Shown piece by piece: positions 1 through 42,810 of a stretch of DNA of 64,000 nt (the stretch's first letter is position 1; every line of letters starts with the position of its first letter). The notes beneath the pieces are model-generated. The model did not search any database, was not told where the DNA came from, and saw only the letters and a program-made list of their open reading frames with translations. Source of the stretch: an uncultured Candidatus Saccharibacteria bacterium (GTDB lineage: Bacteria > Patescibacteriota > Dojkabacteria > SC72); the NCBI GenBank assembly GCA_964480345.1, contig CAYZNW010000001.1, positions 149,359 through 213,358 on the forward strand, in the 5' to 3' direction. Made by a program: the position numbers and the translations under genes.

Positions 1-18
1 AAATTTATTTAAATAAAC

Positions 19-2139: not shown

Positions 2140-2163
2140 CTTTTATAATCATAGTTACTAGGT

Positions 2164-2182
2164 AGGTAGAGTGTATCTACCT
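2164..2182. terminator. short hairpin (AGGTAGA-gtgta-TCTACCT) between convergent pnp and methyltransferase genes; possible bidirectional terminator
   Basis: 7-bp inverted repeat read directly in the 52-bp gap between two convergent stop codons. Confidence 0.35.
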
Positions 2183-2191
2183 GTCTACAAC

Positions 2192-3957: not shown

Positions 3958-4128
3958 ACAGTATTATACTATACATAGGTTAAAGGTAGGTGAATTCTCT
4001 TACGGTATCTATCTTACCATCCTAAATTTCATAGATATTTAAGATTCTATAAGTCCGTATCTGAGTATTTAACTCTTGATATTAATACTCTGAACTAACG
4101 CATCGTTAATAACTTCCTTCTTCTAAAT

Positions 4129-5112: not shown

Positions 5113-5121
5113 TGTATAGGT

Positions 5122-5165
5122 TTGACATTTGTCTTTCTATTTAGTTATATATATGTAGATATAAT
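5122..5165 (+). promoter_or_regulatory. candidate sigma70-like promoter for the envelope operon (TTGACA-17-TTATAT, plus a second TATAAT)
   Basis: hexamers read directly upstream of 5182; no experimental support. Confidence 0.3.
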
Positions 5166-5181
5166 TTGACTGCCATATATT

Positions 5182-8835: not shown

Positions 8836-8856
8836 ATAATTTGTAAAACGAAAAAA

Positions 8857-9144
8857 ATGGAAACAATACCACCAGTATTCTGGATGATAGTCATAGCAAT
8901 ACTAACTGTAATGATATGCCTAGTCCTGTATTACCTAGCAATGCTACTAAAAGAAAGCAGAGATACTGTAGCTAAAACAGAACCAATAATTAAAGATCTA
9001 CAAACATCTGTATCATCTGTGACAGACACCTTAAATGAAGTAAACAACCTAGTAGTCAAACCAGTCAGAGGAATAGAAGCAGCCATATCCGTAGTAAATG
9101 GAATAATTACAGGAATAAAAGGTGACACAGAAGAAAAAAAATAA
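8857..9144 (+). CDS. small membrane protein, DUF948-like (N-terminal TM helix plus coiled coil)
   Basis: 95 aa; single N-terminal TM helix followed by helical segment resembling the DUF948 family. Confidence 0.5.
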   Translation: METIPPVFWMIVIAILTVMICLVLYYLAMLLKESRDTVAKTEPIIKDLQTSVSSVTDTLNEVNNLVVKPVRGIEAAISVVNGIITGIKGDTEEKK

Positions 9145-9194
9145 GAGTAGAACAATATTGTCACAAACTCCATTAAAAGGTATCATATTTCATA

Positions 9195-11093
9195 ATGAAA
9201 ATTGCTCAGCTTCCTAAAAGAAGAACAAACAACATAGTGTTGATAATCCTCATAGTAGGACTACCAATACTACTCTTTGCTACATACAAAGTAGTACAAG
9301 TAATAATCAACGCAGCAGCAGACACACAACCAAAAAATGTAGTAGTAAGTGATATAACTACAAATTCAATAAACATATCATGGGCAACAGACTCACCAGT
9401 AACAGGAGCAGTAATTGTATATCAAAATGGAACACAGAAATCACAAGTAGCTGATGCCAGAGGAGTAGGGAGGAAATTGACTCATTATGTATCAATAGAT
9501 AACCTAGAACAAGGAACAGCATACGACTTTACAATACTCTCTGGAACAGATAAATATGCATCTGAATCAGGAAAGAAATTTACATTTACAACCCCCTCGA
9601 TAACACCACAACAAGTAACTCCACACCCAATATTCGGATCTGTTACTACAAAAACAGGAGATAACGCAATAATATATGCAACACTAAGTGACAAATCAAC
9701 ATACCCTGTATCTGCTAGAGTAAAAGAAGAAGATGGCACCTGGTTAATAGACCTAGCTTCTCTCAGAAATATCTCAGATAAGAAACTTGTTACCATATCT
9801 AATATCTCTAATATATCAATAATAGTTGTAGCAGGAGTAAACAGGGGAGCTGTATTAGAAGGAAGCTACTCCTCACTTTTCAACAATGATGGGAAATTAG
9901 TAGCATCTAGCACATTAGCATTAGCTGAAAGAACAGATATGTACTCTTTCATACCAGATGGAGCAAAATTAGTAGCATATGACGAAGTCCCCCCTCCTGC
10001 ACCGACGCCAACTCCTACTCCAACACCCACGCCTAGACCAACTCCAACTCCAACTCCAACACCACCTCCTGCACCAATACCTGAACCTGAAGAAACCTTC
10101 ACAAGGAGATATAGAATCATACATCAATTAATTTGGGGTAATCTCTCATCGGAAGTAGCTTCATCACCTGTTACATCTTCTGTAACTGGAGAGAAAAGCA
10201 TCAAAGTAACAAACTTAACAGATACAGGATTTACTGTAGTATGGCTCTCTAAAGAGAAAGAGAAAGGATCTGTGAATTACGGAACAAGTAAATCAAATCT
10301 AAACAATACGGCTAGAGACACAAGAGATGGGTTAGTCTCACAAGGAGAATACTATGTACACAATATAGATGTATCAAAACTCCAACCTGAAACCACATAC
10401 TACTACGAAGTTCTCTCTGGTAAAAACACATATGACAACAGTGGAGCAAAATACAGTATAGATTCATTTGCAACATTAAGCTCACCTCCTGCATTTAAAA
10501 GTATAAAAGGAAAATTCAGCAGTATGCCATCTCATGGTGAGGGTATATTAATAGCAAGTATAGAAGATGCAGATGAAACAGGAACATTAGGAAAAAGTCT
10601 TCCAATCTCTTCTGTTATCGGAGATGCTGGGTTATTTACCTTGACTGTTTCAAATAGCTGGAGCACAGATGGTACAAAATATTTCGAATATACATCTCCT
10701 GATAAAATTAGCTTGGATGTAATGACAACATTTGATGTTAAGACTCAAACAACTACCATGAAAGATGTTGAAAGTATTGATATAGATGTTGATCTAAAAG
10801 ATATCTCATCTATACCCACTTCTACATCAGTAGGAAAAGTTCCAAGATTAACAAATTACGGAATATTAGGTGCGACAGATGGTTCTTCATTACCTGTAAG
10901 CAATCCTACAATTTCATCAACCTCTACGAACAGAATAACTACTACAAGTGGTTCTATTCCAAAAACAGGAATAGTAGAAGATATGATTTACGGTTTAGCA
11001 ATCTCGCTCTCTTTTATTCTCTTAGGAAGTATAATATACTTTAAGTCTGTTAAAAGGAAGAAATATAAAGGTAAAATGGTTACTAACTTATGA
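9195..11093 (+). CDS. cell-surface protein with two FN3/PAP-N-type domains, Pro/Thr linker and C-terminal LPXTG-like (IPKTG) sorting signal
   Basis: 632 aa; signal peptide with AAA-D cleavage-like site; two domains with ...SW(A/L)T...G.V.Y....YY(F/E)..SG pattern; PTPTPTPTPRPTPTPTP linker; C-terminus SIPKTG + hydrophobic stretch + KRKKYKGK tail. Confidence 0.8.
   Translation: MKIAQLPKRRTNNIVLIILIVGLPILLFATYKVVQVIINAAADTQPKNVVVSDITTNSINISWATDSPVTGAVIVYQNGTQKSQVADARGVGRKLTHYVSIDNLEQGTAYDFTILSGTDKYASESGKKFTFTTPSITPQQVTPHPIFGSVTTKTGDNAIIYATLSDKSTYPVSARVKEEDGTWLIDLASLRNISDKKLVTISNISNISIIVVAGVNRGAVLEGSYSSLFNNDGKLVASSTLALAERTDMYSFIPDGAKLVAYDEVPPPAPTPTPTPTPTPRPTPTPTPTPPPAPIPEPEETFTRRYRIIHQLIWGNLSSEVASSPVTSSVTGEKSIKVTNLTDTGFTVVWLSKEKEKGSVNYGTSKSNLNNTARDTRDGLVSQGEYYVHNIDVSKLQPETTYYYEVLSGKNTYDNSGAKYSIDSFATLSSPPAFKSIKGKFSSMPSHGEGILIASIEDADETGTLGKSLPISSVIGDAGLFTLTVSNSWSTDGTKYFEYTSPDKISLDVMTTFDVKTQTTTMKDVESIDIDVDLKDISSIPTSTSVGKVPRLTNYGILGATDGSSLPVSNPTISSTSTNRITTTSGSIPKTGIVEDMIYGLAISLSFILLGSIIYFKSVKRKKYKGKMVTNL
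9990..10090 (+). repeat. low-complexity Pro/Thr-coding tract (ACTCCA-type near-repeats)
   Basis: ccgacgccaactcctactccaacacccacgcctagaccaactccaactccaactccaaca read directly; encodes the PT linker. Confidence 0.6.
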
Positions 11094-12541
11094 TACAAAA
11101 AAGAAACAACAAAAAAGGCTTGTACTTCTTAACTCTATTAGGAGTATTTGCTTTTTTTGCTGTAAAAATTTCAAACAAAATACATGTTGAATCTAAAGCT
11201 ACTGAGATTAAAGTGGTGTCTACAGAAGAGTGTACAAATTGTGGAGGAGTAGAATCCAAGGTGACAGAGGAAAAAATATTACCTGAAGAACAGAACAGTA
11301 TTAAAGTGACAGTATTACCAGCATCTGAAACCGTAGATATTACTGATTCGGTCTTAGGTGTGTTAGATGTTGTGAGAGGAAAGACAGCTTGGTCATGTGA
11401 AGATTATAATGTAGCAAATCATGTAGCTTCAGATACGATACTTTGTTCTAATGGTACTGGAAGTATAAATTATGAAGGAGGTTCAGCTGAGAATGATGAG
11501 ATTAGAGTTGCTAAAGATGCTGAGATACAGCTTACAGAAGTGACATACCCATTAGCATATTGGCTTGGGAAGTATACATATGATAATAGTACAAAAACTA
11601 TTACAACAAGAACCTCTGAGTATAGATCTAGTGGTGAGCAAATTAATGAAGCATATCAAAGTAGAGCTCTTGCTCCTCAAGAAGCAGAAACGTTTCGTAA
11701 AAACATAGATGGTACTGTAAGGCAAAAATTCACAGTAGAGGGAACTGTCTCTGCAGATCCTGAAATTACCGAGATACATGAGGCAGGTAAATATGTAGTT
11801 AGAAATGCTAGTCACGATCCTAAATGTAATTGTGTGGATAAAGTCGCAGTATCTGATTTTAATGTCGGTAAAAGTAACTATATATCATCAGACAAAGATG
11901 ATGGGTTATATATGCGTCAGCAGATTCCTGGAGGAGATAAATATGATGAGAGTCCTGTAGATGGTTGTATAAAAGAGGGAGAAGATTTTAAATCTATTGA
12001 TTATGGTCTAAAACATGCCTGTTGGGATATTGTTGCAAAAATTAAGGGGATATTTAAAAATCCTTTTAGCAGAGCCCAATGGAATGCATGTAATGGGATT
12101 AAATGTGATGAAAATGATGAAGATTGCGAAGAAGGAGAACGTACAGATAATTGTATTAAGCCAGAAGATATTGGTGTGACAATGTCTTCTATTTTCGGAG
12201 ATCCATATGAATGTGAGACAGAAGGATGTGCTACAGCAGCGATGACATATGTACATAAAGCTACCCTCTCTCCTGAACAAGCAAGTAACAAGAAAATAGT
12301 ATCTGGCGAATCAGAAGAAAGTCTGATGCATTTTGTAGCTACACCTTGTAGAGCAATGGTAGTGGAGACAAGATTAGAAATAGATGTAAAATGTATTTGG
12401 GATGACTCACCAACAATGTTAAATTATTTTTTAAATAAGACAGATAGTGCTCCTGGTCAGGATTTCCCTAAGAATTTTGATACATATTGGTCTTCAACAG
12501 AAGAAGATATAAAGAAATCAGCGGAATATTATAAATTATAG
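11090..12541 (+). CDS. Cys-rich extracytoplasmic protein with N-terminal membrane anchor; hypothetical
   Basis: 483 aa; ATGA overlap with upstream gene; one N-terminal TM helix; >20 Cys in the predicted exported part. Confidence 0.7.
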   Translation: MIQKRNNKKGLYFLTLLGVFAFFAVKISNKIHVESKATEIKVVSTEECTNCGGVESKVTEEKILPEEQNSIKVTVLPASETVDITDSVLGVLDVVRGKTAWSCEDYNVANHVASDTILCSNGTGSINYEGGSAENDEIRVAKDAEIQLTEVTYPLAYWLGKYTYDNSTKTITTRTSEYRSSGEQINEAYQSRALAPQEAETFRKNIDGTVRQKFTVEGTVSADPEITEIHEAGKYVVRNASHDPKCNCVDKVAVSDFNVGKSNYISSDKDDGLYMRQQIPGGDKYDESPVDGCIKEGEDFKSIDYGLKHACWDIVAKIKGIFKNPFSRAQWNACNGIKCDENDEDCEEGERTDNCIKPEDIGVTMSSIFGDPYECETEGCATAAMTYVHKATLSPEQASNKKIVSGESEESLMHFVATPCRAMVVETRLEIDVKCIWDDSPTMLNYFLNKTDSAPGQDFPKNFDTYWSSTEEDIKKSAEYYKL

Positions 12542-20738: not shown

Positions 20739-23700
20739 TTATTTCTTACTCTGTAGTTTCTTTTTTGCTAGTACTGATACAAGTATACTTCCAACACTAT
20801 ACACAATTGGCCAAGACCAATATATTTGGCAATCTCCTTTTGTAAATAGATACCATGCACCACATGAGATTATGACGAAGAGTACAGTTATCAAATTATT
20901 TTGTGTGAGTAATATTATTATGAGTAATAATACTGCAATAATCGTTGGAGCTATAATAGAAGGTTTTTTGCAGGCTTCTGTAGTCTCATCACTCCTGTTG
21001 TTGTCTTCTCTTACTGTATCCGTAAGCTGTTTGTTTTCTGGCTTTATATCTTCCTTCTCTGCAGTTTCGCTTTTATCTTGCTCTTGTGGCTTTGGTGGAG
21101 CCATCAAAGTAAGTTCGTTTGTAGTTATATCTGTAATAACTGAGCCATCTCTAGATATTATCTCTACTTTTACATCATAAACTCCAAGTATCAATCCATT
21201 TTCTAAATTGGTGAGATCTAATTTCCATATATCTCCATCTGTTGTTAATTCTGGATTAATACCAAGAGTGTATTTTACATCATTTGTTAGAATAGAAAGT
21301 TGTAGAGAGTTCTTCGAATCGTATGTCCCTGTAATTACAGGTTTGTTTCCTATGAATTTTAATGTGTCTACAGTTGGAATATTAGCATCAGGTCTAAGGA
21401 TAGACAGTTCATTACTAGTAGGATCGTTTGTATAATTTCCTGCAGGATCGGTAAAAGAAACTATGACATCATAAATACTTGGTTTCAAATTTATGAGAGA
21501 ACCTTTTGCTAAAGTCCAAGTCTGATCTTTATTGTTTATCGCATTATATTTAACTCCATTTACTAAAACACTTATTTCCGCTGTTATATCATCCACAGTC
21601 CCACTTAACTCAGGGGAGGTATCTATACCATCTGGGATTGGATTAAGAGTACCTGTAGGGCTAATAGTGTCGATAGTTATTACTTTTTCTATTGCAGTAG
21701 TGGTTGTATTTCCTGCCAAATCAGAAGCAGTAACAGAGAAAGTATACTCATCATCTATAAGGGGTGGAGTAATGATTCCTGCTTGAAGAATCCAGGTACC
21801 ATTTCCATTATTCTTAGCTGAATATGTATTACCATTGATTGATACTTGTATGGTGGCCGTTTTATCATCAATAACTCCTTCTATTACAGGAGAAGAAGTA
21901 TTTCCATATTGCGTTGTGATGTCTATAACAGGAGGAGTTATGTCATAGGTTACTGTATTATCAGTACTACTACTTTTCTCATTTCCATTTCCTGCATTTC
22001 CAAAGATCTTGTTTTCTTCAATTTCAACTTTTGCGATGTCTCCATCAGTCATGTATGTAACTTCTATTTCATATGTAAGATTATCTATTTTAGTTAATCT
22101 TGTTACAGCCCCAGTTGTCCCAGAAAGGGTAATATCACTAGCATCAAATGTACTTTCATTAATAGGTTTAGAAAATATGATAGTAAATAGGGCAGAATTG
22201 ATATTTGTTGGGTCATTCTGCTCAGCTTTTTGATTAATAGTAACAGTTGGCTTGATAGTATCAATTTCTATTTCATTTGTAGTAGTATCGTATCCATTAT
22301 TGAGAGCTAAATCGGTAGCTTTTACAATAGCATCGTATTTGCCATCTATTAGTTTACTAATGGTGGAATGTGGAAGAATCCAAGTATCGTCACCATTGTT
22401 TGTTGCTGAGTACTCAATACCATTTATTGTAACTTTTATCGTTGCGTATTCATCATTTACTGTTCCTGTTAATTGCGGGGAGGTATTATTTGTAATTAAA
22501 TTATCTACTGTTACAGTAGGTGGCGTTATATCGTATGTTACATAAGCATTGCTTTCTGTACTTTCCTGATTTAAGTTACCATATATATTTTCTACTTTTC
22601 CAGCTGGTAACTCTGCTGTAATAGTATCTCCATCTGTCATTCCGTTTACTGTAACTTGCCATGTATCTTGCTTTAATTGTATGAAATTAGTAACCGATGC
22701 AGTTGTGCTTCCGATAATAGCAATATCATCTGAAGTAAAGGTTGAAGGAATAACATTTTGGCAAGAGAATGTAAATATGAAAATAACTTGATTGGTATTT
22801 GTTGGATTTGGTTGTGTATCTGGAATTGTGACTTCTACAGTAAGTAGAGTATCATCTATGATTAATTCTCCTGTCGATGTATCACTACCAACATTTCCAG
22901 CTTTATCAGTTGCAGAAGCTGATATGTCGTATGTTCCATTAGGAATATGGTCAGGAATGGTTAAACTCCATCGTCCAATAGCAGAGTGGTTAGCTGTATA
23001 TGTATTACTATTAACAGTTACTTTAATAATTGTATCGTCATCATCTATACTACCTCCAACAGTAGGTGTGTGTTTATTTGTTATGGTATTTGCTACGGTT
23101 ATTGTAGGAGCAACATTATCAATGGTTAATTCGTTATTTGAGGTATCTTGTCCGGTATTACCTACAGTATCTGTTGCTTTTGCAATTATATTATATGTAC
23201 CATCTGAGAGAGTGTTTATTATAGAAGCAGGTAGAGACCAAGTTCCATTAGTATTGTTAGTTGCGCTATATTCTATCCCTTCTACAGTAATCTTAATTAT
23301 TGCTGAGTTGTCATCTATAGTTCCAGTCAGTTCAGGAGATCTATTTTGAGTAAATAGTGTATTTATAGTAATGACTGGAGGAGTAGCGTCGTATGTAACT
23401 GTGTTATCGGTACTTGTGCTTGCAGTATTACTGTTCCCAGCTAAGTCAGTGAATTTCCCTGCTGATATACTTAAGGAAATAGTACTGACACTGTTCATAC
23501 CTGCAATTGTTACACTCCATTCAGTTGCACTTTCTCTTTGGAACCCTGTTATTGTTCCAGGACCACCAGCTATTGAGATAATTGATGGTGTAAATGACAC
23601 TTCATTTATTGGTTCAGAAAGTATAACAGTAAATTTAGCAGAGTTAATATTTGTAGGATCAGGCTGACCGACCATTTGATTTACTGTTACAGTTGGTTTT

Positions 23701-25889
23701 GTAATATCGTAAGTTACTTTATTATCTGTACTTGTACTAGCAGTATTACTATTGCCAGCAAGATCATTAATAACTCCAGATGGTATAGTAGCTACTACAG
23801 TATCTCCATCAGTCATACCAGTAACAGTAATATTCCAAGTAGTATTATTTGTCCCTACCTTAGAAAAACCAGTTACTGTTCCAGTAGTTCCTTCTAAAGT
23901 AATATCTGATGCAGAGAAAGTAGATTCGTTTATAGACTCAGAGAATACTACAGTAAATTGAATAGAGTTAATATTTGTAGGATCAGCCTGCCCAACTTTT
24001 TGATTAATAGTTACTGTTGGTTGAACAGTATCTATTGTTAGTTCATTTGTCGAAGAGTCTGTTCCGATATTTGTAGCAGTATCTGTTGCAGTAGCGGAGA
24101 TGTTGTATGTCCCATTTGATAATGCAACAACAGTTTGTACGGACCAAGTACCATCTCCTTCGTTTACACCATTATATTGAAGGCCATTTACTGTGATTTT
24201 AATAGTTGCTAAAGAATCATCGATATTTCCTGTTAGAAGAGGAGAAGTAACATTTGTTGTTAATGGATTAATTGTAATTATTGGTGGTGTATGGTCCCAA
24301 GTTATACTGTTATCTGTACTTGTGCTTGCTAGATTTGTATTTCCTGCTAGATCTTCAACTTTGTCTTCAAGCAGGGAGAGTTTTAATGTCATATCAGTTG
24401 TCATGCCAGTAACAGTCGCTGTCCATTGTGTAGATGTATTTTGTGCTAAGTTTGTAACTTGAGCCGTTCCTGCAATAAGGCTTAAATCGTCAGTCGTAAA
24501 TGTTGAGGCATTAATAGGTTCTGAAAAAACAATAGTAAAAAGAAGATTTAATCCATTTGTTGGATCTGCTTGTCCTGAAGCTTGATTGACTGTAACAGTT
24601 GGTCTAGTTATATCATATGTGATTTGATTATCTGTACTTGTACTTGCAGTGTTGTTATTTCCAGCGAGATCAGTAATTTTTGATGATGCAAGTGAAAGAG
24701 TAGTTGTTGTATTGGTGGCCATTCCACTTAGTTCTGCACTCCATGTTGTATCGTCAACTTTTGTAAGGTTTGAAACAGTTGCAGTGCTTCCTGAAATAGT
24801 GAAATCTGATGGTTGCAGTGTGGTTTCATTTATTTTTTCACTAAATACAATAGTATATGTCATAGGTGAAGTGTTTGAAGGATCTTTTTGAGTAGTAGCT
24901 TGGTTAATTGTAAGGGTCGGAGAAGTAGTATCTATCGTTAATTCGTTTACAGTATTATCGGATGAACTATTCATAGCTGGATCTGTCACTGTCGCCTCTA
25001 TATTGTATACACCCTCTGCAAGTTGAGTAGGAATAGTAAATGTCCAGGTGTCGTTGGTATTGTTAGTTGCAATATAGCTAACACTATTTACAATCAGACG
25101 GATAGTAGCAGTACTATCATCAGTTGTTCCTGTAATAGTAGGTGTTGTATCATTTGTAATTATTGGGTTGATGGTTACTGTAGGGATTGTGATATCGTAA
25201 GTTATCTGATTATCTGTACTTGTACTTGCTAGATTTGTATTGCCAATCAAATCTTCTATAACATCGGCTGGGATAGTTGCACTTACTGTCTCTCCATCAC
25301 TCATACCAGTAACCGTGATATTCCAAGTTGTATTCTCTGCCCCTACCTTAGTAAAATCAGTAATAGTTCCAGTATTACCAGATATGAGAATATCAGATAA
25401 GGTAAAAGTGAGTTCATTGATAGGTTTTGAAAATATTACAGTGAATTGAGCAGAGTTAACATTAGTCGGATCAGCTTGTCCAGCTTTCTGATTGATTGTT
25501 ATTGACGGTTTCGTACTATCAATAGTTAGTTCATTTATAGAATTATCATTAGAGGTGCCGTCAACAGGATCTATTGCAGTAGCGACAATATCATAAACGC
25601 CATCGTTTAGTGCTGAAGTTATCTCTGCAGACCAAGTTCCATTTTGATTATTTATTGCAGAGTAACTGTTCTCGGATATTGTAATAGAAATAGTACTTGT
25701 TGTTGTACTTATTGTTCCTGTGATTGTAGGGGTAGAATCATTTGTGATTAGTGTGTTAATAGTAATGACAGGAGGAGCTGCTTTTGTCACAAACTTCCTA
25801 GCGAAAATGAAAAGACTTAACAAGACAAACGGAAATATTAGTATTAATAGGACTTTCTTGGAATTACTCTTCTTCATTCCTGTGGGCAA
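20739..25889 (-). CDS. giant surface adhesin-like protein with ~8 tandem units of two alternating bacterial Ig-like domain types and C-terminal TM anchors
   Basis: 1716 aa; N-terminal signal/anchor; repeats of ...TNDTTPTITGT.DD..ATI...VNG..Y.ATNN.NGTW... alternating with ...PTVTINQK.GQ.DPTN.NS..FTV.FSE.INE.TF..SDI...GTTGTVT...TVTGMTDG...DLAGN.N.ASTSTDN.VTYDIT; Glu/Lys-rich stalk and 2-3 TM helices at C-terminus. Confidence 0.85.
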   Translation of the reverse strand: MPTGMKKSNSKKVLLILIFPFVLLSLFIFARKFVTKAAPPVITINTLITNDSTPTITGTISTTTSTISITISENSYSAINNQNGTWSAEITSALNDGVYDIVATAIDPVDGTSNDNSINELTIDSTKPSITINQKAGQADPTNVNSAQFTVIFSKPINELTFTLSDILISGNTGTITDFTKVGAENTTWNITVTGMSDGETVSATIPADVIEDLIGNTNLASTSTDNQITYDITIPTVTINPIITNDTTPTITGTTDDSTATIRLIVNSVSYIATNNTNDTWTFTIPTQLAEGVYNIEATVTDPAMNSSSDNTVNELTIDTTSPTLTINQATTQKDPSNTSPMTYTIVFSEKINETTLQPSDFTISGSTATVSNLTKVDDTTWSAELSGMATNTTTTLSLASSKITDLAGNNNTASTSTDNQITYDITRPTVTVNQASGQADPTNGLNLLFTIVFSEPINASTFTTDDLSLIAGTAQVTNLAQNTSTQWTATVTGMTTDMTLKLSLLEDKVEDLAGNTNLASTSTDNSITWDHTPPIITINPLTTNVTSPLLTGNIDDSLATIKITVNGLQYNGVNEGDGTWSVQTVVALSNGTYNISATATDTATNIGTDSSTNELTIDTVQPTVTINQKVGQADPTNINSIQFTVVFSESINESTFSASDITLEGTTGTVTGFSKVGTNNTTWNITVTGMTDGDTVVATIPSGVINDLAGNSNTASTSTDNKVTYDITKPTVTVNQMVGQPDPTNINSAKFTVILSEPINEVSFTPSIISIAGGPGTITGFQRESATEWSVTIAGMNSVSTISLSISAGKFTDLAGNSNTASTSTDNTVTYDATPPVITINTLFTQNRSPELTGTIDDNSAIIKITVEGIEYSATNNTNGTWSLPASIINTLSDGTYNIIAKATDTVGNTGQDTSNNELTIDNVAPTITVANTITNKHTPTVGGSIDDDDTIIKVTVNSNTYTANHSAIGRWSLTIPDHIPNGTYDISASATDKAGNVGSDTSTGELIIDDTLLTVEVTIPDTQPNPTNTNQVIFIFTFSCQNVIPSTFTSDDIAIIGSTTASVTNFIQLKQDTWQVTVNGMTDGDTITAELPAGKVENIYGNLNQESTESNAYVTYDITPPTVTVDNLITNNTSPQLTGTVNDEYATIKVTINGIEYSATNNGDDTWILPHSTISKLIDGKYDAIVKATDLALNNGYDTTTNEIEIDTIKPTVTINQKAEQNDPTNINSALFTIIFSKPINESTFDASDITLSGTTGAVTRLTKIDNLTYEIEVTYMTDGDIAKVEIEENKIFGNAGNGNEKSSSTDNTVTYDITPPVIDITTQYGNTSSPVIEGVIDDKTATIQVSINGNTYSAKNNGNGTWILQAGIITPPLIDDEYTFSVTASDLAGNTTTTAIEKVITIDTISPTGTLNPIPDGIDTSPELSGTVDDITAEISVLVNGVKYNAINNKDQTWTLAKGSLINLKPSIYDVIVSFTDPAGNYTNDPTSNELSILRPDANIPTVDTLKFIGNKPVITGTYDSKNSLQLSILTNDVKYTLGINPELTTDGDIWKLDLTNLENGLILGVYDVKVEIISRDGSVITDITTNELTLMAPPKPQEQDKSETAEKEDIKPENKQLTDTVREDNNRSDETTEACKKPSIIAPTIIAVLLLIIILLTQNNLITVLFVIISCGAWYLFTKGDCQIYWSWPIVYSVGSILVSVLAKKKLQSKK
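21390..25770. repeat. coding tandem repeats (~570-nt unit, ~8 copies, diverged) encoding alternating Ig-like domains
   Basis: periodicity read from the protein translation; the + strand of this region is full of short spurious ORFs. Confidence 0.6.
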
Positions 25890-27299: not shown

Positions 27300-28778
27300 G
27301 TGATAAACTGTATGTGTATGAAAGAGTTGATGAAAAAGAGATTAAAGATTTGGGGTCCAATATTGCTTCTTTTATGTGTTTTGGTAGGTTTGTTTGTATG
27401 GTGGTGGTTAAGTAGACGAGTGACTCAGGAACAGCGGGATGATTATGGTGTGAAAATTAGTGAAGCTGAAAATAGTTTTGAGTCTAAAGAGTATACAGCC
27501 TCTATAAATAAGTATTACGATGCAACGAAGATAATCCCTACTGACATTGTGGCCTATGAGGGCATTATCAAAATTTTGTTGTTAAAAAACCATGTACTTG
27601 ATGCTTTAGGAATAGTTGATAAGGCTGCAAATGCACTGTCTGTCACGGATAAATCACGATTGTATGTGATGGTTGGTAACTATTACTACAATAATAAAGA
27701 ATTTGAAAAGGCCAAAGATATATATCAAAAAGGTATAGGTTTGGGAGTTCAGAATATGAATGCTGATTTAATGCTTGGTAAATCCCTCCTTAATATAGGT
27801 AAAATAGATGAGGCTAAAAGACAGTTTGAACTAAATGGGTATGATGGTGAGGATTTGATTGAGGCAACTCTATTAAAATCGTACATATACTCTTTATCCG
27901 ATTTCACAAAAGCGGAAGAGGCGCTAAAGAGTGTAACGCCTACTGAAAAACTTAAACTGTATTACGAAGAGTTTGATAAAGTTTTAAAATCTTTAGATAC
28001 AGATACTAAGTACAATTCTGCAAAACTAGCTCGTATATTTTTGAATAATGGGTATCCATTTCTTGCAGTGAATATACTAGAAACACGAAAGGATGAGATT
28101 ACCGAATATGTAGAGGGCTTGTACTATTTAGGTAGAGGTTATGTGGAATCAGGACAGGTTGATAATGGGTTAGATACTTTAGAGAAATCTTTAACTTTAG
28201 GTCATATGCAGACGGAGATATCATGGACTATGGCAAGAGGATATGCTCGAAAAAATGATTTGGATGGTGCTATGCGGCATTACTCTAATGCAGTCGCTTA
28301 TGCAGGTAAAAATGTTACTAAAGAGTTGGCAAATGAATATATCCTATTTCTTTTGAAAAATAAGCAGTATTTGAAAGCAACGGAGAGTGTGACGAGTATG
28401 CTTACTGCTTCTCAAATACCTTCATTGTATTTACTAGGTATACGAAGTAATTATGAGCTAAACGAATTGAATAAGATTGATTACTATTTGGAACAATTAA
28501 GAAAGATTGCATTGACAGACGAGGAGAAGAAGGAGTACTTATATTGGAATGCCAAGGTATATTTGAAGAAAGAGAACTTAGATGCAGTAAATACTGTTCT
28601 TAATGAACTCATTACTTTAGATAAATATAATGCTAATTACTATCTTCTGCTTGGGAGATATAACATTGAAAAGGGAGATTCTCAAGAAGCTAAAAATGCT
28701 TTAGAGAAATCAATAGAGTACGACTTAAATAACTCTATAACAGATGAAGCATTGAAATTGTTGTCTAATATCAATTAG
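27300..28778 (+). CDS. membrane-anchored TPR-repeat protein
   Basis: 492 aa; N-terminal TM helix then multiple 34-residue TPR-like repeats (W/L-G-Y-A-F-P pattern); start may be a downstream ATG (27318-27330). Confidence 0.7.
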   Translation: MINCMCMKELMKKRLKIWGPILLLLCVLVGLFVWWWLSRRVTQEQRDDYGVKISEAENSFESKEYTASINKYYDATKIIPTDIVAYEGIIKILLLKNHVLDALGIVDKAANALSVTDKSRLYVMVGNYYYNNKEFEKAKDIYQKGIGLGVQNMNADLMLGKSLLNIGKIDEAKRQFELNGYDGEDLIEATLLKSYIYSLSDFTKAEEALKSVTPTEKLKLYYEEFDKVLKSLDTDTKYNSAKLARIFLNNGYPFLAVNILETRKDEITEYVEGLYYLGRGYVESGQVDNGLDTLEKSLTLGHMQTEISWTMARGYARKNDLDGAMRHYSNAVAYAGKNVTKELANEYILFLLKNKQYLKATESVTSMLTASQIPSLYLLGIRSNYELNELNKIDYYLEQLRKIALTDEEKKEYLYWNAKVYLKKENLDAVNTVLNELITLDKYNANYYLLLGRYNIEKGDSQEAKNALEKSIEYDLNNSITDEALKLLSNIN

Positions 28779-28828
28779 TTCTGTATAATCGCAACTGTCC
28801 CTTTTTGTTAATTTATGTAGAGAATTTT

Positions 28829-30931
28829 ATGGATAAAAGTACGTATAATGTAAAAATGCCTTTGGATAAGGTAAGAAACATCGGTATTATCGCTCATATT
28901 GATGCTGGTAAAACTACTACTACCGAAAGATTACTTTATTTCACAGGTCAGGTACATAAGATTGGAGAAACTCATGAGGGAGCTGCTACAACAGACTTCA
29001 TGGAACAGGAACAAGAGAGAGGTATTACAATTATGTCCGCAGCAGTAACATGTTTCTGGGATCATGATGGAAATAGATACAGAATCAATATTATAGATAC
29101 TCCAGGACACGTAGATTTCACCGCAGAAGTAGAAAGGTCATTAAGAGTATTAGATGGAGCTGTTGTTATCTTTGATGGTCGAAAAGGTGTAGAACCTCAA
29201 TCAGAAACAGTTTGGAGACAAGCAAACAAGTATAAAGTTCCTAGAATCTGTTTTATGAATAAAATTAATCTAATAGGAGGAAGTTTTGAACATAGCTTTG
29301 AAACTATCAAAAGTAGATTAAGTAATAAAGCAGTTGCAGTTACATATCCAATCGGAAAAGAACAAGAACTTCACGGCTATGTAGATTTAGTGAAAATGAA
29401 AGCATATGAATACAAAGGTACAGATACTCCTGATTTAATAGAGTGTCCAATTCCAGAGGATATCAAAACTCAGGTAGATGAATTAAGAAATATTTTGGTA
29501 GAAGCATTAGCAGAACAAGATGATGCTTTAATGGAGAAATATTTTGCAGGAGATGAATTAAAAGAGGAAGAGCTATATGCAGCTTTAAGAAAAGGCACTT
29601 TAGAGGGAAAGATCTTCCCTGTTCTTGGTGGGGATTCTCGAACTGCTATGTCAAAAACCTTACTTGATTACATTACTATATGTTTGCCATCTCCTCTTGA
29701 TAAAGAGGCAGTAAAAGGAGTAAATCCAAAAACAAATGAAGAAGAAGAGAGAAAAGCTGAAGAAAGTGAGCCTTTCTCCGGTTTAGTATTTAAGATAGTA
29801 AATGATCCTCATATTGGTAATCTTTCATACTTCAGAATTTACTCTGGAAAGATAAATTCTGGATCATATGTATTAAACTCGACTAAAGGAATTAAAGAAA
29901 GAGCAAGTAGATTAATATTGATGCATGCGGATGATAGAGAAGAGGTTGATTCTCTTCGAGTTGGAGATATAGGTGCAATTGTAGGACTTAAAGATTCTAT
30001 AACAGGAGATACTCTTTGCGATGAGTCTCATCCTATTATTTTAGAAAAGATAGACTTTGCTGAGCCTGTTGTATCAGAAGCTATTGAACCAGCTACAAAA
30101 TCAGACGAAGAAAAGATGTCCGAGGCATTAGCTAGATTAACAAAAGAGGATCCTACATTTACTGTTAAATCTGATATGGAAACAGGGCAGACAATAATAT
30201 CAGGAATGGGTGAGCTTCACTTAGATATCATTGTAGATAGATTAAAAAGAGAATTTAATGTCGCAACAAATGTTGGTAAACCACAGGTAGCATACAAAGA
30301 AACTATTAAGAATGTAGTCGAACAATCTGAAGGAAGATATATCAAACAATCAGGAGGTAAAGGTCAGTATGGACACTGTTGGTTGAAATTGGAACCAAAT
30401 GAGAAAGGTAAAGGTTTTGAATTTGTAAATGAAGTTAAAGGAGGTTCAATTCCTAGAGAATTTATCCCTGCTATTCAGAAAGGAGTAGAAGAATCTATGA
30501 AATCTGGTGTAGTTGCAGGATATCCAGTAGTAGATATTAAAGTCTCTGTTTATGATGGTTCTTATCACGATGTTGACTCATCTGAGGCAGCATTTAAAAT
30601 TGCAGGATCTATGGCATTTAAAGAAGGATGTAAAATGGGTAGCCCAATACTTCTAGAACCTATTATGAAAGTAGATGTTGATACACCAGACAACCACATG
30701 GGAGATGTTACTGGGTCTCTAAGTAGCAAACGAGGACAGATACAAGGAACAGAGAGTCTAGGTAGTGGAGTTAGTAGAATAACTGCAATGGTACCACTTT
30801 CTGAGCTATTTGGTTATACAAGTGAACTACGATCTATTACTAGTGGAAGAGGTAGTGCTACTATGGAACCTTCTCATTATGCTGAAGTACCAAGAAATGT
30901 AGCAGAAGAGATTGCAGGGAAGAAAGTTTAG
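28829..30931 (+). CDS. fusA: translation elongation factor G (non-canonical G4 motif NKIN)
   Basis: full-length alignment to EF-G (AHIDAGKTT, RGITI, DTPGH, five domains); ORF opens at TTG 28805, ATG candidates 28829/28856. Confidence 0.9.
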   Translation: MDKSTYNVKMPLDKVRNIGIIAHIDAGKTTTTERLLYFTGQVHKIGETHEGAATTDFMEQEQERGITIMSAAVTCFWDHDGNRYRINIIDTPGHVDFTAEVERSLRVLDGAVVIFDGRKGVEPQSETVWRQANKYKVPRICFMNKINLIGGSFEHSFETIKSRLSNKAVAVTYPIGKEQELHGYVDLVKMKAYEYKGTDTPDLIECPIPEDIKTQVDELRNILVEALAEQDDALMEKYFAGDELKEEELYAALRKGTLEGKIFPVLGGDSRTAMSKTLLDYITICLPSPLDKEAVKGVNPKTNEEEERKAEESEPFSGLVFKIVNDPHIGNLSYFRIYSGKINSGSYVLNSTKGIKERASRLILMHADDREEVDSLRVGDIGAIVGLKDSITGDTLCDESHPIILEKIDFAEPVVSEAIEPATKSDEEKMSEALARLTKEDPTFTVKSDMETGQTIISGMGELHLDIIVDRLKREFNVATNVGKPQVAYKETIKNVVEQSEGRYIKQSGGKGQYGHCWLKLEPNEKGKGFEFVNEVKGGSIPREFIPAIQKGVEESMKSGVVAGYPVVDIKVSVYDGSYHDVDSSEAAFKIAGSMAFKEGCKMGSPILLEPIMKVDVDTPDNHMGDVTGSLSSKRGQIQGTESLGSGVSRITAMVPLSELFGYTSELRSITSGRGSATMEPSHYAEVPRNVAEEIAGKKV

Positions 30932-31072
30932 TATTTCTTTGGGGAATATCAAAAGAAGCTACTAAAGGTCTTGCATTAGCTCGAACTTTTTGATAGTATT
31001 CATCGCAGGTTCTGTAAAGAGGACTTTGCAATATATAAATAATATTGTATTTAATTTTTAATAAATATATTC

Positions 31073-32248
31073 ATGGCAGATTTTAATAGAACAAAGCCAC
31101 ACATGAATATCGGAACTTTGGGTCATATCGATCACGGTAAGACAACATTTGTTCGTGGTATTCTTAGAACATTCACAGCAGATGCTGGTGATGCAGATAA
31201 GATGATTGATAAACTGGATAAAGATCCAGAGGCAAGAGCAAAAGCTATTACAATAGCAGTTGCACACGTTGAATTTGAAACTGAAAACAGACACTATGCA
31301 TTAGTAGACTGTCCAGGTCACAAAGACTACATCAAAAATATGATCACAGGAGCAGCACAGATGGACGGAGCAATTTTGGTTGTTTCTTCTAGCGATGGTG
31401 CTATGCCTCAGACAAAGGAGCATATCTTACTTGCAAAGCAGGTTGGAGTTCCTAAGATTGTAGTATTCATAAACACATTTGGAACACCTGATCCTGAGAT
31501 TTTGGAATTAATCAAATCTGATGTCCAAGATCTATTAAAGAAATACGGATATGATCCAGATTGTCCAATGATTGTCGGAGATGCATTGAAAGCATTTAAA
31601 GGTGAGGAAGAGGGTGCAGCTACTATGAAAGAAGTTATGAAAGCAGTTGATGAATATATTCCTCTACCAGAGAGAGATACAGACAAGCCATTCTTGATGC
31701 CTGTTGAAGATATCTTCTCAATTGAAGGAAGAGGAACAGTTGTTACAGGTAGAATCGAGAGAGGAATTATCAAAGTTGGAGAAGAAGTTGAAGTGTTAGG
31801 TCTTGGTAGAAAAGCACAGAAAACTGCAGTCATTGGAGTTGAAATGTTCAACAAGACATTAAATGAAGGACAAGCAGGAGATAATGTAGGTATTTTGTTA
31901 AGAGGATTAAAGAGAGAGGATGTTCAGAGAGGACAGATCTTGACAGTCCCTGGTAGTATCTCTACTCATACCGATTTCAAAGCAGAGGTTTATGTATTAA
32001 GTAAAGAAGAAGGTGGTAGACATACCCCATTTGTATCTGGATACAAGCCTCAGTTCTACATCAGAACTGCAGATGTAACAGGTGAAGTTATATTGAACGA
32101 AGGAACCGAAATGGTTGCTCCTGGAGACAACACAGAATTTACTGTTAAGTTGATGGCTCCTGTTGCAATTGAGAAAGGTGTATCTTTCGCAATCAGAGAA
32201 GGAGGTCAAACAGTAGGACAAGGAATAGTAACAGAGATCTTGAAATAA
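31073..32248 (+). CDS. tuf: translation elongation factor Tu (non-canonical G4 motif NTFG)
   Basis: 391 aa; [14 protein letters not shown], domains 2-3 highly conserved ([13 protein letters not shown]...); canonical position before rpsJ. Confidence 0.9.
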
Positions 32249-39823: not shown

Positions 39824-40465
39824 ATGGACGAAAAGATTAGAAGAAACCACAAAGAAAGAAAGATGTTTGATAAGAAATCATTACCAATAAGAAGAGTTGC
39901 AAAAGTAACTAAAGGTGGTAAGAGATTACGATTTAGCACAGTTGTAGTAGTAGGAGACAGACATGGAACTGTAGGAGTAGCACTTGGAAGAGGAGCGGAT
40001 GTTAGAGGAGCAGTAGAACAAGGAGAAAGATTAGCATCTAAAAATGCTACTAAAATACAACTCGTTGGAGATACAATCCCTCATGAAATTAAAATGAAAT
40101 ATGGAGCTTCTAAAGTCCTACTCAGACCTGCTAGACCAGGTACTGGAGTAATTGCAGGATCATCAGTAAGAACAGTATTAGAAATGGCAGGAGTAGATAA
40201 TGTATACGGTAAAATCCTAGGAAGCCCAGATGCAAATGGAAACGCTTACTGCACATACAGAGCACTCAAATCATTACGAAATGAAAGAGTACTAAGTAGA
40301 ATGACCAAAATGAGAAATAGAATAGAACTAAAAGAAGCATCAGACAAAGAAAAGAAAGCAAAAGAAGAGAAAAAGAGAAAATTACACAAAAAAGAACACT
40401 CATCTAGAAAAGATAAATTTCAAAAAAGATCAGATAAGAAAGTTAAAGTAAATAGGAAAAAATAA
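39824..40465 (+). CDS. rpsE: 30S ribosomal protein S5 with Lys/Glu-rich C-terminal extension
   Basis: 213 aa; dsRBD and S5 C-domain; ~50-aa basic tail. Confidence 0.95.
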   Translation: MDEKIRRNHKERKMFDKKSLPIRRVAKVTKGGKRLRFSTVVVVGDRHGTVGVALGRGADVRGAVEQGERLASKNATKIQLVGDTIPHEIKMKYGASKVLLRPARPGTGVIAGSSVRTVLEMAGVDNVYGKILGSPDANGNAYCTYRALKSLRNERVLSRMTKMRNRIELKEASDKEKKAKEEKKRKLHKKEHSSRKDKFQKRSDKKVKVNRKK

Positions 40466-40908
40466 TGAACCTCGAAAACATACCAGAAAGAAAAAACAGA
40501 ATAAAGAAATCCAAAAGACTTGGCAGAGGCTACGGATCAGGAGTAGGAGGACACACAGTTGGAAGAGGAACAAAAGGACAGAAATCACGAGCAGGACACA
40601 AATCCTTACAATTCTTCGAAGGAGGAAATGTACCCTTCTTTAGAAGAATGCCTAAGTACAAAGGCTTTAATAGAAAATTCAAACTAGAAGCCAGTGCAGT
40701 CAATGTCGGCACTTTGGAGAAATACTTTGAAACAGGAGAAGTTGTAAATATGGACAATTTGAAAGCAAAAGGAATTGTTAAGAAAAACTCTAAGAAAGTG
40801 AAAATACTTGGCAATGGAGAACTAAAGAAAAAGCTAACTATCGAGGGAATAGAAGTATCTACTACTGCCATAGAAAAAATAAAGAAATCTGGCGGGGTTA
40901 TCAAATAA
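40465..40908 (+). CDS. rplO: 50S ribosomal protein L15 (follows S5 directly; no L30 gene)
   Basis: GRGYGSGVGGHTVGRGTKGQKSR motif; ATG overlaps S5 stop. Confidence 0.95.
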   Translation: MNLENIPERKNRIKKSKRLGRGYGSGVGGHTVGRGTKGQKSRAGHKSLQFFEGGNVPFFRRMPKYKGFNRKFKLEASAVNVGTLEKYFETGEVVNMDNLKAKGIVKKNSKKVKILGNGELKKKLTIEGIEVSTTAIEKIKKSGGVIK

Positions 40909-40919
40909 TCTCAAAGAAA

Positions 40920-42185
40920 ATGAACAAATTCATAGAAAAATTGAAGTCCATCTGGAAAACAGAGGAGATTAGAAAAAAAATACTCTTTTCACTAATCATT
41001 ATGATAGTGTATAGAGTACTCTCTGCCATACCTGTATCAGGAATCCCAGCTGAAGCCATCAAACAACTATTTGAAGGAACTGGAGTAGGAGAAGTCCTAT
41101 CTACAGTCTCAGGCGGAGTATTAGAAACAGCATCAATCGTAGCAATAGGATTAACACCATACATCAATGCTTCAATCATCTTCCAATTACTTGGTACAGT
41201 AATTCCAAAACTAGAAGAATTACAAAAAGAGGGACAAGAAGGAAGAAGAAAAATATCTATGTACACCAGAATCGCTACAGTACCACTAGCAATCTTACAA
41301 TCATTTGTGATTTACTCCTCACTCTTAGCCATGGGACTAATCCCACAACTTGGAGCATTAGAACTAATTGCAATGTCAGCAACCCTATCAGCAGGCTCAA
41401 TGGTAATGATGTGGTTTGGAGAACTAGTCTCCGAAAGTGGAGTCGGTGGAGGATCCTCATATTTAATCATGTTAGGAATACTCTCAGGAATACCTGGCAC
41501 TATGAGAACCAATTTCTTAACGATGGACGACACGCAGAAAATAATATTTACAATATTCTCATTACTACTGATCATATCAGTTATCTTTGTAACTCAAGCG
41601 GAAAGACGAGTGAAAGTACAATATTCTCGAAGAGTACGAACTGGAGGAGCTATGGAAAGCTATATCCCAATAAAACCAACACAATCAGGAGTTATGCCAG
41701 TAATATTCGCTATGGCATTCATATCCTTCCCACAACTAATAGGCAAATTCTTAATAAGTAAAAATTACAATCAGGGATTAACAGATTTCTTGCAAAGATT
41801 ATTAGATTGGTTAAACAACCCATATATATACAATTCATTAATTTTCGTACTAGTCATAGCTTTCTCATTCTTCTATCTAACAGTCGTTTTTAAAACGGAT
41901 GAATTAGCAGAGAATTTGCAAAAGCAAGGAGCGTTTATACAAGGTATAAGACCTGGAGATAACACATCTGATTATTTGCGAAAAGTCAGTTATAGATTAG
42001 CTGTAATAGGAGCTATATTCTTAGCAGTACTATCTATCTTACCTGATATAACAGTCCAACTTGGCTTAATACCAAGAGCTGTATTCTCTGGTACAGGATT
42101 ACTAATTGTCGTAGGTGTAGTTCTCGAAATCAAAAGACAAATAGAATCAATGATGACCGTAAGAAGTTATAACAGATACCTTTAA
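40920..42185 (+). CDS. secY: preprotein translocase subunit SecY
   Basis: 421 aa, 10 TM helices, position after L15. Confidence 0.9.
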   Translation: MNKFIEKLKSIWKTEEIRKKILFSLIIMIVYRVLSAIPVSGIPAEAIKQLFEGTGVGEVLSTVSGGVLETASIVAIGLTPYINASIIFQLLGTVIPKLEELQKEGQEGRRKISMYTRIATVPLAILQSFVIYSSLLAMGLIPQLGALELIAMSATLSAGSMVMMWFGELVSESGVGGGSSYLIMLGILSGIPGTMRTNFLTMDDTQKIIFTIFSLLLIISVIFVTQAERRVKVQYSRRVRTGGAMESYIPIKPTQSGVMPVIFAMAFISFPQLIGKFLISKNYNQGLTDFLQRLLDWLNNPYIYNSLIFVLVIAFSFFYLTVVFKTDELAENLQKQGAFIQGIRPGDNTSDYLRKVSYRLAVIGAIFLAVLSILPDITVQLGLIPRAVFSGTGLLIVVGVVLEIKRQIESMMTVRSYNRYL

Positions 42186-42238: not shown

Positions 42239-42810
42239 TTTAAGATTCTATAGGATCTTAACGCTTAGATTAATCCATTTTAAGGGCAAGAACCAAACGA
42301 TAGTAGTTAATAAGAGTGTCATTTTCCTTGAGGATAAATAACGTATTTTGGTCTAATTCTTGAGGATTTTCATTAATATATTTTACTATCTTTTCAAAAT
42401 AAACAATATCGGTAATCTTCTTTTTCTTATACCGCCCTTGAAATAAATGACCAACAACACCATATCTCCTATTTATGTACTTAGTATAAACAGCAGAAAT
42501 AGTTTGTATCGCTTTCTCTGTCTTCTGAGAACCGTTCCTTACAATTAAAATGTGAAAGTGATTCGGCATGATACATAAAGAAATAATGCTAAAAAACCTA
42601 CGATCAAAATACTTATAAAATAACGAAAGAAATTTATAATAATCCTTTTTTGAGAAACAAATCTTTTGCTTTCTGTTTCCTCTATTGTATATATGATAAA
42701 TCGACCCTTTTTCTAAAGATATCCTCATTTAAAAGTTATATCTAATAATTATTAAAATTAAGTTAAATTGGCATTAGTTGCGAAGAATTAACCAATAGTA
42801 TCTTATAAAA
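42239..42810 (-). mobile_element. IS200/IS605-family (RAYT-like, tnpA-only) element inserted between secY and adk, flanked by inverted copies of a REP-like motif
   Basis: HUH Y1 transposase gene flanked by TTTAAGATTCTATAGG (42239-42254) and a degenerate inverted copy CCAATAGTATCTTATAAA (42792-42809); secY-adk gap is ~700 bp instead of the usual few nt. Confidence 0.5.
42270..42728 (-). CDS. tnpA: IS200-like / REP-associated tyrosine transposase (HUH Y1 family)
   Basis: 152 aa; YHIYNRGNRKQKIF...CIMPNHFHILI (HuH motif)...VGHLFQGRY (catalytic Tyr) matches Y1_Tnp/PF01797 pattern. Confidence 0.8.
   Translation of the reverse strand: MRISLEKGSIYHIYNRGNRKQKICFSKKDYYKFLSLFYKYFDRRFFSIISLCIMPNHFHILIVRNGSQKTEKAIQTISAVYTKYINRRYGVVGHLFQGRYKKKKITDIVYFEKIVKYINENPQELDQNTLFILKENDTLINYYRLVLALKMD

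Follow-up and report, generated by a model that had tools for sequence, protein, structure and literature searches.

Can the two GTPases that drive translation elongation, EF-Tu and EF-G, do without the aspartate of the G4 motif NKxD, and if so, what nucleotide do they use? This question is raised by a stretch of 64,000 nucleotides of DNA (positions 149,359 to 213,358 of contig CAYZNW010000001.1, referred to here as the window) from an uncultured bacterium that GTDB places in the Dojkabacteria. Its neighboring fusA and tuf genes encode an EF-G and an EF-Tu in which that residue is replaced. An earlier reading of the sequence, which we call the original prediction, held that both factors lack the guanine-specificity Asp of G4 and have gained an Asp in G5, and took this to be a coordinated remodeling of base recognition, with altered or relaxed nucleotide specificity, for which it knew of no precedent in an essential translation factor. 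Our analysis indicates that the change is most likely a compensated rewiring, which has occurred repeatedly, of the site at which essential translational GTPases recognize the base.

The nearest relatives of both proteins (81-100% identity) belong, by their NCBI and JGI names, to the Dojkabacteria/WS6, a group of the Patescibacteria or Candidate Phyla Radiation (CPR), and one homolog (P0271) is identical to the window EF-G across all 700 amino acids (aa). The GC content of the window is approximately 34%. EF-G scores 1008 bits against TIGR00484 (cutoff 659) and matches five Pfam domains; likewise, EF-Tu scores 609 bits against TIGR00485 (cutoff 522) and matches PF00009, PF03144 and PF03143. 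Both are full length by domain architecture and agree with orthologues of their families in every whole-protein respect considered. They depart from those families only in the G4 motif and, formally, in G5.

In EF-G, NKxD is replaced by NKIN and the gSAx of G5 by GGDSR. EF-Tu has NTFG in place of NKxD and D-A-L in place of S-A-L in G5, such that Ala-Leu is retained and the position of Ser173 (E. coli numbering) is occupied by Asp. In HMMER alignments to proteins of known structure, the EF-Tu sites face NKCD and GSALKA of 6i8r_A, and the EF-G sites face NKMD and GSALKNKG of Thermus thermophilus EF-G (1dar_A). MAFFT alignments to E. coli EF-Tu and EF-G give the same residue placement. The positions at which the original prediction had located NKIN and NTFG are exact, as judged by coordinates and by these structural alignments. 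Its statements that G1 and G3 are intact and that the proteins are full length agree with the motifs, the profile hidden Markov model (HMM) scores and the domain matches, and the new Asp that it saw in both factors lies at the first position of G5. What it overlooked is that switch I of EF-Tu is altered as well, from RGITI to AKAITI.

A sequence error at these codons, or a decaying fusA/tuf pair accompanied by a canonical pair elsewhere, could in principle account for such changes, and our data, which cover about 64 kb of this genome and approximately 10-20 kb of flanking sequence in its relatives, would allow for a second copy elsewhere. We compared 128 Dojkabacteria EF-Tus (the best 120 homologs and 8 loci) and 120 EF-G homologs. 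The fourth G4 residue is Asp in 0 of the 128 Dojkabacteria EF-Tus versus 66 of 66 from other phyla. Within the clade, EF-Tu G4 is N-x-F-[G/K/P] in every sequence (128/128), with Asn and Phe invariant, EF-G G4 is NK[IVM]N in 120/120, and EF-G G5 is G-D-S-R-[T/S/A] in 119/120. The alignment with related genomes that had been proposed as a check finds the G4 Asp missing from all 128 EF-Tus and all 120 EF-Gs. The altered states are present in at least 240 independent assemblies (NCBI, JGI, ENA and Logan), and the motif codons vary synonymously among relatives (GGA, GGT, GGC or GGG for Gly; AAT or AAC for Asn; GAT or GAC for Asp), on which grounds sequencing error is rejected. Pairwise ratios of nonsynonymous to synonymous substitution rates (dN/dS) between the window and its relatives are 0.04-0.11 for tuf and 0.03-0.11 for fusA. 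The fusA-tuf-rpsJ order is kept in the window, with rpsJ, rplC and then the remaining S10/spc/alpha operons directly 3' of tuf, and fusA-tuf synteny is conserved in every Dojkabacteria locus fetched. In none of these loci did we find a second copy of fusA or tuf around fusA-tuf, and a 645-kb contig of one relative (L002) was reported with a single tuf match. A pseudogene or decaying paralogue is rejected on the low dN/dS, the conserved operon and HMM scores far above their cutoffs; in addition, no change is seen in G1 or G3, at the catalytic His or at the Mg-binding Thr. Taken together, clade-wide conservation, low dN/dS, synonymous codon variation and kept synteny effectively exclude error, pseudogene and decaying paralogue, and we regard any explanation of this kind as extremely improbable. 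The fusA and tuf genes of the window encode the primary factors, lie in the operon, are under purifying selection and, on the reading that we prefer, are the only working copies; the view of the change as coordinated, non-random and distinct from decay is borne out.

The loss of the G4 Asp in EF-G goes together with the gain of an Asp in G5. A GTDB scan with EF-Tu, in which generic peptide patterns dominated, returned 80 loci, of which 7 were Dojkabacteria-like and the rest served as canonical controls. Among these loci, 57 operon-encoded EF-Gs entered our alignment. Asp is present at G5 position 1 in 15 of the 15 EF-Gs that lack Asp at G4 position 4, and in 0 of the 42 that have NKxD (Fisher p = 4.5e-14, uncorrected for phylogeny). 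In a neighbor-joining tree computed without the motif columns, the 15 swapped sequences span separate parts, namely the Dojkabacteria (NK[ILV]N with GGD[SG]R), a separate CPR-like lineage (L011; NKLN with GGDNR), two Saccharibacteria (L013 and L020; NKIN with GGDGR) and a clade of gut- or animal-associated metagenome-assembled genomes (MAGs) labeled 'Bacilli' (NKM[G/E/C] with C[A/S/G]DAL). The swapped CPR sequences are interspersed among canonical WWE3 and Microgenomates sequences, and six other Saccharibacteria are canonical. One sequence nested in the Bacilli clade (L065) has NKMD with ATAL, i.e., Thr rather than Asp in G5, and by its placement appears to be a nested reversal to NKMD. A search from one Bacilli EF-G seed yielded 120 close relatives, with motifs readable in 119. 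These comprise NKME with [A/S]DAL (78), NKMG with DAL (22), NKMC with DAL (14), NKMD with TAL (3) and NKME with AAL (2), such that at least one of the two positions (G4 position 4 and G5) is always acidic. The Bacilli clade members (L012, L040, L048, L049, L056, L074, L079 and P0391-P0510) carry this EF-G in the str operon, and one of its EF-G clusters was found on 422 contigs.

Every lineage outside the Dojkabacteria that has a swapped EF-G has a canonical EF-Tu (NKxD/SAL), and the Dojkabacteria are the sole lineage found so far in which both elongation factors are changed. The parallel variants in L013, L020, L011 and the Bacilli clade thus share with the Dojkabacteria the loss of the G4 Asp and the replacement of the G5 Ser by Asp in the str-operon EF-G, but differ from them in their canonical EF-Tu. 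The Bacilli EF-G differs further in having Glu, Gly or Cys at G4 position 4 and in retaining a KNKG-like G5 tail. In light of these parallel swaps, the claim that the change is without precedent was too strong; a G4-to-G5 swap appears to have arisen in EF-G repeatedly.

In the EF-Tus of the Dojkabacteria, exactly one Asp is found among G4 position 2, G4 position 4 and G5 position 1 in 126 of 128 sequences. N[K/T/L/V/R]F[G/K] pairs with D-A-L, and NDFG, in which the Asp is at G4 position 2, pairs with S-A-L (31 sequences) or N-A-L. On the EF-Tu tree, NKFG with DAL is basal and loss of the Lys comes later; the NDFG sequences with SAL group in a single nested clade, and an NDFG with NAL (P0007) has a separate origin. 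The position of Lys136 is therefore variable in the clade (K/T/L/V/R, and Asp in the NDFG subclade), and one residue is deleted after G4. EF-Tu is also remodeled further than EF-G. In switch I, the otherwise invariant E55, R58 and G59 become S/A, K and S/A, respectively (giving [A/S]K[S/A]ITI in the clade and RGITI in 66 others), and in helix D the otherwise invariant residues show the changes E150K, E152D and R154Q (E. coli numbering). Other replacements of otherwise invariant residues are Y69F, H78L and V140A, plus several positions in domain 3. When representatives at 50% identity were collected, most were fragments, fusions or degenerate EF-Tu-like paralogues without catalytic motifs. Among them, P0217, P0222 and P0250 are divergent EF-Tu-like proteins with a degenerate switch I, G3 or G4 (e.g., NGSH, NKWR or NDTS), some with long N-terminal fusions; these would appear to be EF-Tu paralogues without catalytic activity that have no connection with the Dojkabacteria variant.

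How might guanine be recognized by such a site? In E. coli EF-Tu, Asn135, Asp138, Ser173, Ala174 and Leu175 form hydrogen bonds with the base, against whose ring Lys136 is stacked (PMC6144822). In many GTPases, O6 is bound by the main-chain NH groups of the G4 Lys and the G5 Ala, and 43% of the GTP-protein complexes in the PDB are without NKxD, many of them using another Asp or Glu for N1/N2 (PMC11594714). From the EF-Tu contacts and the main-chain binding of O6 it follows that G5 position 1 and G4 position 2 both flank the O6/N1 edge. The residues that read a 6-oxopurine, G4 Asn and G5 x-Ala-Leu, are invariant in the EF-Tus of the clade. An AlphaFold2 model, built on a shallow alignment of 29 sequences, has a mean predicted local distance difference test (pLDDT) score of only 53 overall and is confident only at residues ~130-200, where the layout is the canonical strand-G4-helix D-strand-G5-helix (pLDDT 87-94).

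We favor, with a probability of roughly 0.55, a relocation in which the guanine-reading carboxylate has left G4 for G5 and, in one subclade of EF-Tu, has passed further to G4 position 2, while GTP use is kept, perhaps with changed affinity. More precisely, the acid that recognizes guanine along its Watson-Crick edge would shift from G4 position 4 to G5 position 1 (Ser173 of E. coli EF-Tu). An Asp at that position or at G4 position 2 could accept the N1-H bond once the side chain at G4 position 4 is gone, and would contact N1-H/N2-H. In the one EF-Tu subclade, the Asp would have moved again, to G4 position 2, with G5 reverting to Ser. The 6-oxopurine pocket, consisting of the G4 Asn and G5 x-Ala-Leu with backbone amides directed to O6, would be kept. 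Since the rest of this pocket is conserved, GTP binding and ribosomal hydrolysis are most likely retained, and GTP would remain the substrate; the N2 amino group would probably be read less strictly, and the affinity for the nucleotide would be changed. Base stacking may have passed to the invariant Phe at G4 position 3 of EF-Tu, which would account for the dispensability of Lys136. Loss of the G4 Asp is confined to sequences with an Asp at G5 position 1 or G4 position 2, as would be expected if the N1/N2 edge of guanine always has to be faced by a carboxylate, and this argues for compensation rather than a new specificity.

Several points weigh against a relocated carboxylate with GTP use kept. 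The D138N replacement alone turns EF-Tu to the use of xanthosine triphosphate (XTP), and YchF, with its NxxE, uses ATP. The geometry that we assign to the relocated Asp is inferred, and from G5 position 1 an Asp might in principle also accept a hydrogen bond from the N6 amino group of adenine. Two EF-Tus, L006 (NKFP with SAL) and P0094 (NKFG with NAL), lack Asp at all three positions, which indicates that the relocated carboxylate is not absolutely required. With Lys136 lost and both switch I and helix D altered, the change in EF-Tu is more than a simple swap. Finally, in FeoB it is the interplay of the G4 Asp and G5 that decides between a GTP-specific and a nucleoside triphosphate (NTP)-promiscuous enzyme (PMC11406355). 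The L006 EF-Tu is encoded at L006:3274-4554 (UBA9296, Patescibacteria), in a genome whose EF-G has the usual NKVN with GGDGR.

An alternative that we consider possible, although rather unlikely, is that specificity is changed or relaxed, with EF-Tu and EF-G using ATP, inosine triphosphate (ITP) or XTP beside GTP or in its place; an episymbiont that salvages nucleotides could have adapted in this way to unbalanced NTP pools. The bidentate, guanine-specific Asp is indeed gone from both factors and the stacking Lys from EF-Tu, the two EF-Tus without any Asp fit such a change, and the NKME of the Bacilli EF-G resembles the NxxE of ATP-using YchF. However, the strict either/or covariation of the acidic residues argues that recognition of N1-H/N2-H is still selected, and the G4 Asn and G5 x-Ala-Leu, which read N7 and O6, are invariant. 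The tuning of FeoB between GTP-only and promiscuous NTP use by its G4/G5 residues (PMC11406355), and the descent of the ATPase SpoIVA from a TRAFAC GTPase (PMC7952092), offer models for a change of nucleotide. All swapped lineages are uncultured MAGs, and the CPR is known for reduced genomes with fewer GTPases (PMC12641178), which would suit the same explanation. Against it, a canonical EF-Tu beside a swapped EF-G, as found in the other lineages, would mean that two nucleotides are used at one ribosomal GTPase center, and the IF-2 of the clade is canonical. The latter result comes from a metagenome scan seeded with the polynucleotide phosphorylase (PNPase) of the window, which gave 19 Dojkabacteria-like loci with infB directly upstream of pnp. 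Their IF-2 proteins score 421-430 bits against TIGR00487, around the 424-bit cutoff; G4 is NK[C/V/T/I]D in 18 of the 19 and SKSD in the other (L096), and G5 is S[G/A]K in all. The same change, for which the original prediction had suggested that IF-2 be checked, is thus not seen there, with all 19 proteins keeping the canonical G4 Asp and S[GA]K. One of these loci (L101) is colinear with positions 1-11946 of the window at ~70-73% nucleotide identity. Its canonical IF-2 and an NKIN EF-G that is 90% identical to the window EF-G (P0273) very probably share one contig, as judged from the length of 185,770 bp that the L101 contig has in common with the longest one recorded for P0273. The infB gene is of a short form (~515-545 aa), located at L101:7998-9542 and in 18 other loci (L082-L100), and would sit just outside the first base of the window. 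No other P-loop GTPase was found in the window or in the tuf flanks. Exact matching of proteins at the window edges added no further GTPase gene: PNPase had no recorded match, and AspRS and RsmB matched short Logan contigs without new content.

Genome-wide abandonment of GTP is rejected on the basis of the canonical IF-2, and GTP is needed for transcription regardless. The canonical IF-2 of the clade, together with the canonical EF-Tu of the other swapped lineages, argues that there has been no genome-wide move off guanine nucleotides. Of the proposal that base recognition has been remodeled, the part that stands is that the change is non-random and functional; altered or relaxed specificity is not its likeliest outcome, since the covariation of the acids and the canonical IF-2 favor compensation. 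The more general proposition that elongation in the Dojkabacteria, and translocation in some Saccharibacteria and gut Bacilli, are run by factors without strict guanine discrimination, for which ITP, XTP and even ATP would be usable, appears unlikely to us. If true, such loose discrimination would be an adaptation of episymbionts that salvage nucleotides and the first case in nature of a core elongation cycle that has departed from GTP. A further explanation, which is compatible with relocation of the carboxylate but which we judge doubtful, is that nucleotide affinity has been tuned, with weaker GDP binding, spontaneous exchange on EF-Tu, and EF-Ts lost or rewired. Helix D (~144-156) is the main docking surface for EF-Ts, and K136 mutants bind GDP weakly. 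The variable Lys136, the lost Asp138, the deletion after G4 and the altered helix D and switch I would all fit such tuning, and the switch I and helix D changes may reflect an altered or absent interaction with EF-Ts, although those in helix D fit co-evolution with a divergent EF-Ts equally well. No EF-Ts gene was found in the collected Dojkabacteria loci, which cover a small part of each genome and in all of which a regular expression for the N-terminal EF-Ts signature was unmatched. EF-G, for its part, needs no exchange factor, yet has undergone the same swap in several lineages.

Compared with canonical EF-Tu and EF-G (1EFC/6I8R-like and 1DAR, respectively; ~58-63% identity), the Dojkabacteria factors have the same domains, operon position, G1, G3 and catalytic His, and share the G4 Asn and the G5 Ala(-Leu). 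They differ in that the G4 Asp is replaced (by Gly in EF-Tu and Asn in EF-G) and Asp is present at G5 position 1; EF-Tu in addition lacks Lys136 and has Phe at G4 position 3, AKAITI for RGITI and an altered helix D. A change at G4 position 4 identical to that of the window EF-G is found in the engineered Asp-to-Asn XTP mutants of EF-Tu (D138N), Ras, Ypt1, Ran and FtsY. Unlike a G domain with Asn as the sole change in its base pocket, the natural EF-G always has the additional G5 Asp, and EF-Tu has Gly rather than Asn; moreover, XTP is not abundant in cells. YchF/OLA1 is a TRAFAC relative turned ATPase in which the NKxD Asp has likewise been lost from a conserved G domain, and we know of no compensating acid beside the base edge in either YchF/OLA1 or SpoIVA. 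The NxxE motif and the YchF architecture are both absent from the window factors, and NKME occurs only in the gut Bacilli EF-G. SpoIVA is the second such relative that became an ATPase with loss of this Asp (PMC7952092). Both have left the classical GTPase cycle, whereas the Dojkabacteria factors keep every catalytic and ribosome-interaction motif. In Vibrio cholerae NFeoB, also a TRAFAC G domain, interactions between G5 residues and the G4 Asp determine whether the protein is GTP-only or NTP-promiscuous (PMC11406355). FeoB differs from the present case in that it keeps the G4 Asp, such that G5 modulates rather than replaces it, and in that it is not a translation factor.

According to a 2011 survey, NKxD and gSAx are conserved in both EFG I and EFG II (PMC3150367), and in the literature on EF-Tu, EF-G and EF-Ts of Dojkabacteria and Patescibacteria and on G4/G5 compensation we found no description of the variant. 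NKxD counts as a hallmark of translational GTPases; in an entire bacterial class, its Asp is missing from both elongation factors. Here a functional residue would have migrated, in nature, within an active site that ranks among the most conserved known. It bears on how guanine specificity is encoded and on whether symbionts with reduced genomes have loosened the nucleotide requirement of translation. In practical terms, annotation and motif-based prediction of GTPases would flag these essential factors as defective.

Table 1. Positions of the elongation factor genes, their motifs and other features in the window (numbered from its first nucleotide)
Feature	Positions	Strand	Remarks
fusA, EF-G	28805 (TTG, mechanical start of the open reading frame) / 28829 (ATG)..30931	+	700 aa from ATG
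EF-G G1 P-loop AHIDAGKTT	28892-28918	+	canonical
EF-G G2/switch I RGITI	29018-29032	+	canonical
EF-G G3 DTPGH, catalytic His	29096-29110	+	canonical
EF-G G4 NKIN	29258-29269	+	Asp to Asn
EF-G G5 GGDSRT	29627-29644	+	Ser to Asp, one-residue deletion, KNKG lost
tuf, EF-Tu	31073..32248	+	391 aa
EF-Tu G1 P-loop GHIDHGKTT	31121-31147	+	canonical
EF-Tu switch I AKAITI	31238-31255	+	Mg-binding Thr (Thr61) kept; Arg58-Gly59 to Lys-Ala/Ser
EF-Tu G3 DCPGH, catalytic His84	31307-31321	+	canonical
EF-Tu G4 NTFG	31472-31483	+	Lys136 to Thr, Asp138 to Gly; Phe invariant in clade
EF-Tu helix D	~31510-31545		E150K, E152D, R154Q
EF-Tu G5 GDALKA	31577-31594	+	Ser173 to Asp; Ala-Leu kept
rpsJ	from 32318		
Tetratricopeptide repeat (TPR) protein	27300-28778	+	492 aa
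S5, L15, SecY	39824-42185		no L30 gene between S5 and L15
IS200-like Y1 transposase	42270-42728	-	PF01797
Protein of bacterial immunoglobulin (Ig)-like domains	20739-25889	-	1716 aa; Big_13, Big_12, Big_3_3
Large fn3/purple-acid-phosphatase-N-domain protein	5182-8835	+	
Large fn3/purple-acid-phosphatase-N-domain protein	9195-11093	+	
Amino-acid-kinase family protein	57862-58569	+	

The TPR protein gene lies directly upstream of fusA, in the place usually taken by rpsL-rpsG, and this arrangement is kept in all Dojkabacteria loci seen. The transposase gene lies between secY and adk, within the ribosomal-protein cluster; in three relatives (L162-L164), a Y1_Tnp gene is instead located upstream of the fusA-adjacent TPR gene. 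In the same cluster, the S5 gene is followed directly by those for L15 and SecY, as assigned by size and by comparison with Pfam-annotated relatives (L162/L163), and the missing L30 is a known CPR trait. The Ig-like protein, which contains many such domains, and the two large fn3 proteins nearby probably serve an episymbiont at its surface or in adhesion. The amino-acid-kinase family protein scores 95 bits against TIGR02076 (archaeal-type UMP kinase) versus 47 bits against the bacterial model, both below cutoff, and its gene is not adjacent to tsf or frr. UvrD is intact in the window and in L163/L164 (667-668 aa); in L162 it is divided between two open reading frames (260 and 426 aa) at L162:4597-6758 (NCBI MAG contig DAOOVT010000007.1), a split that probably stems from a frameshift or from faulty assembly of that MAG.

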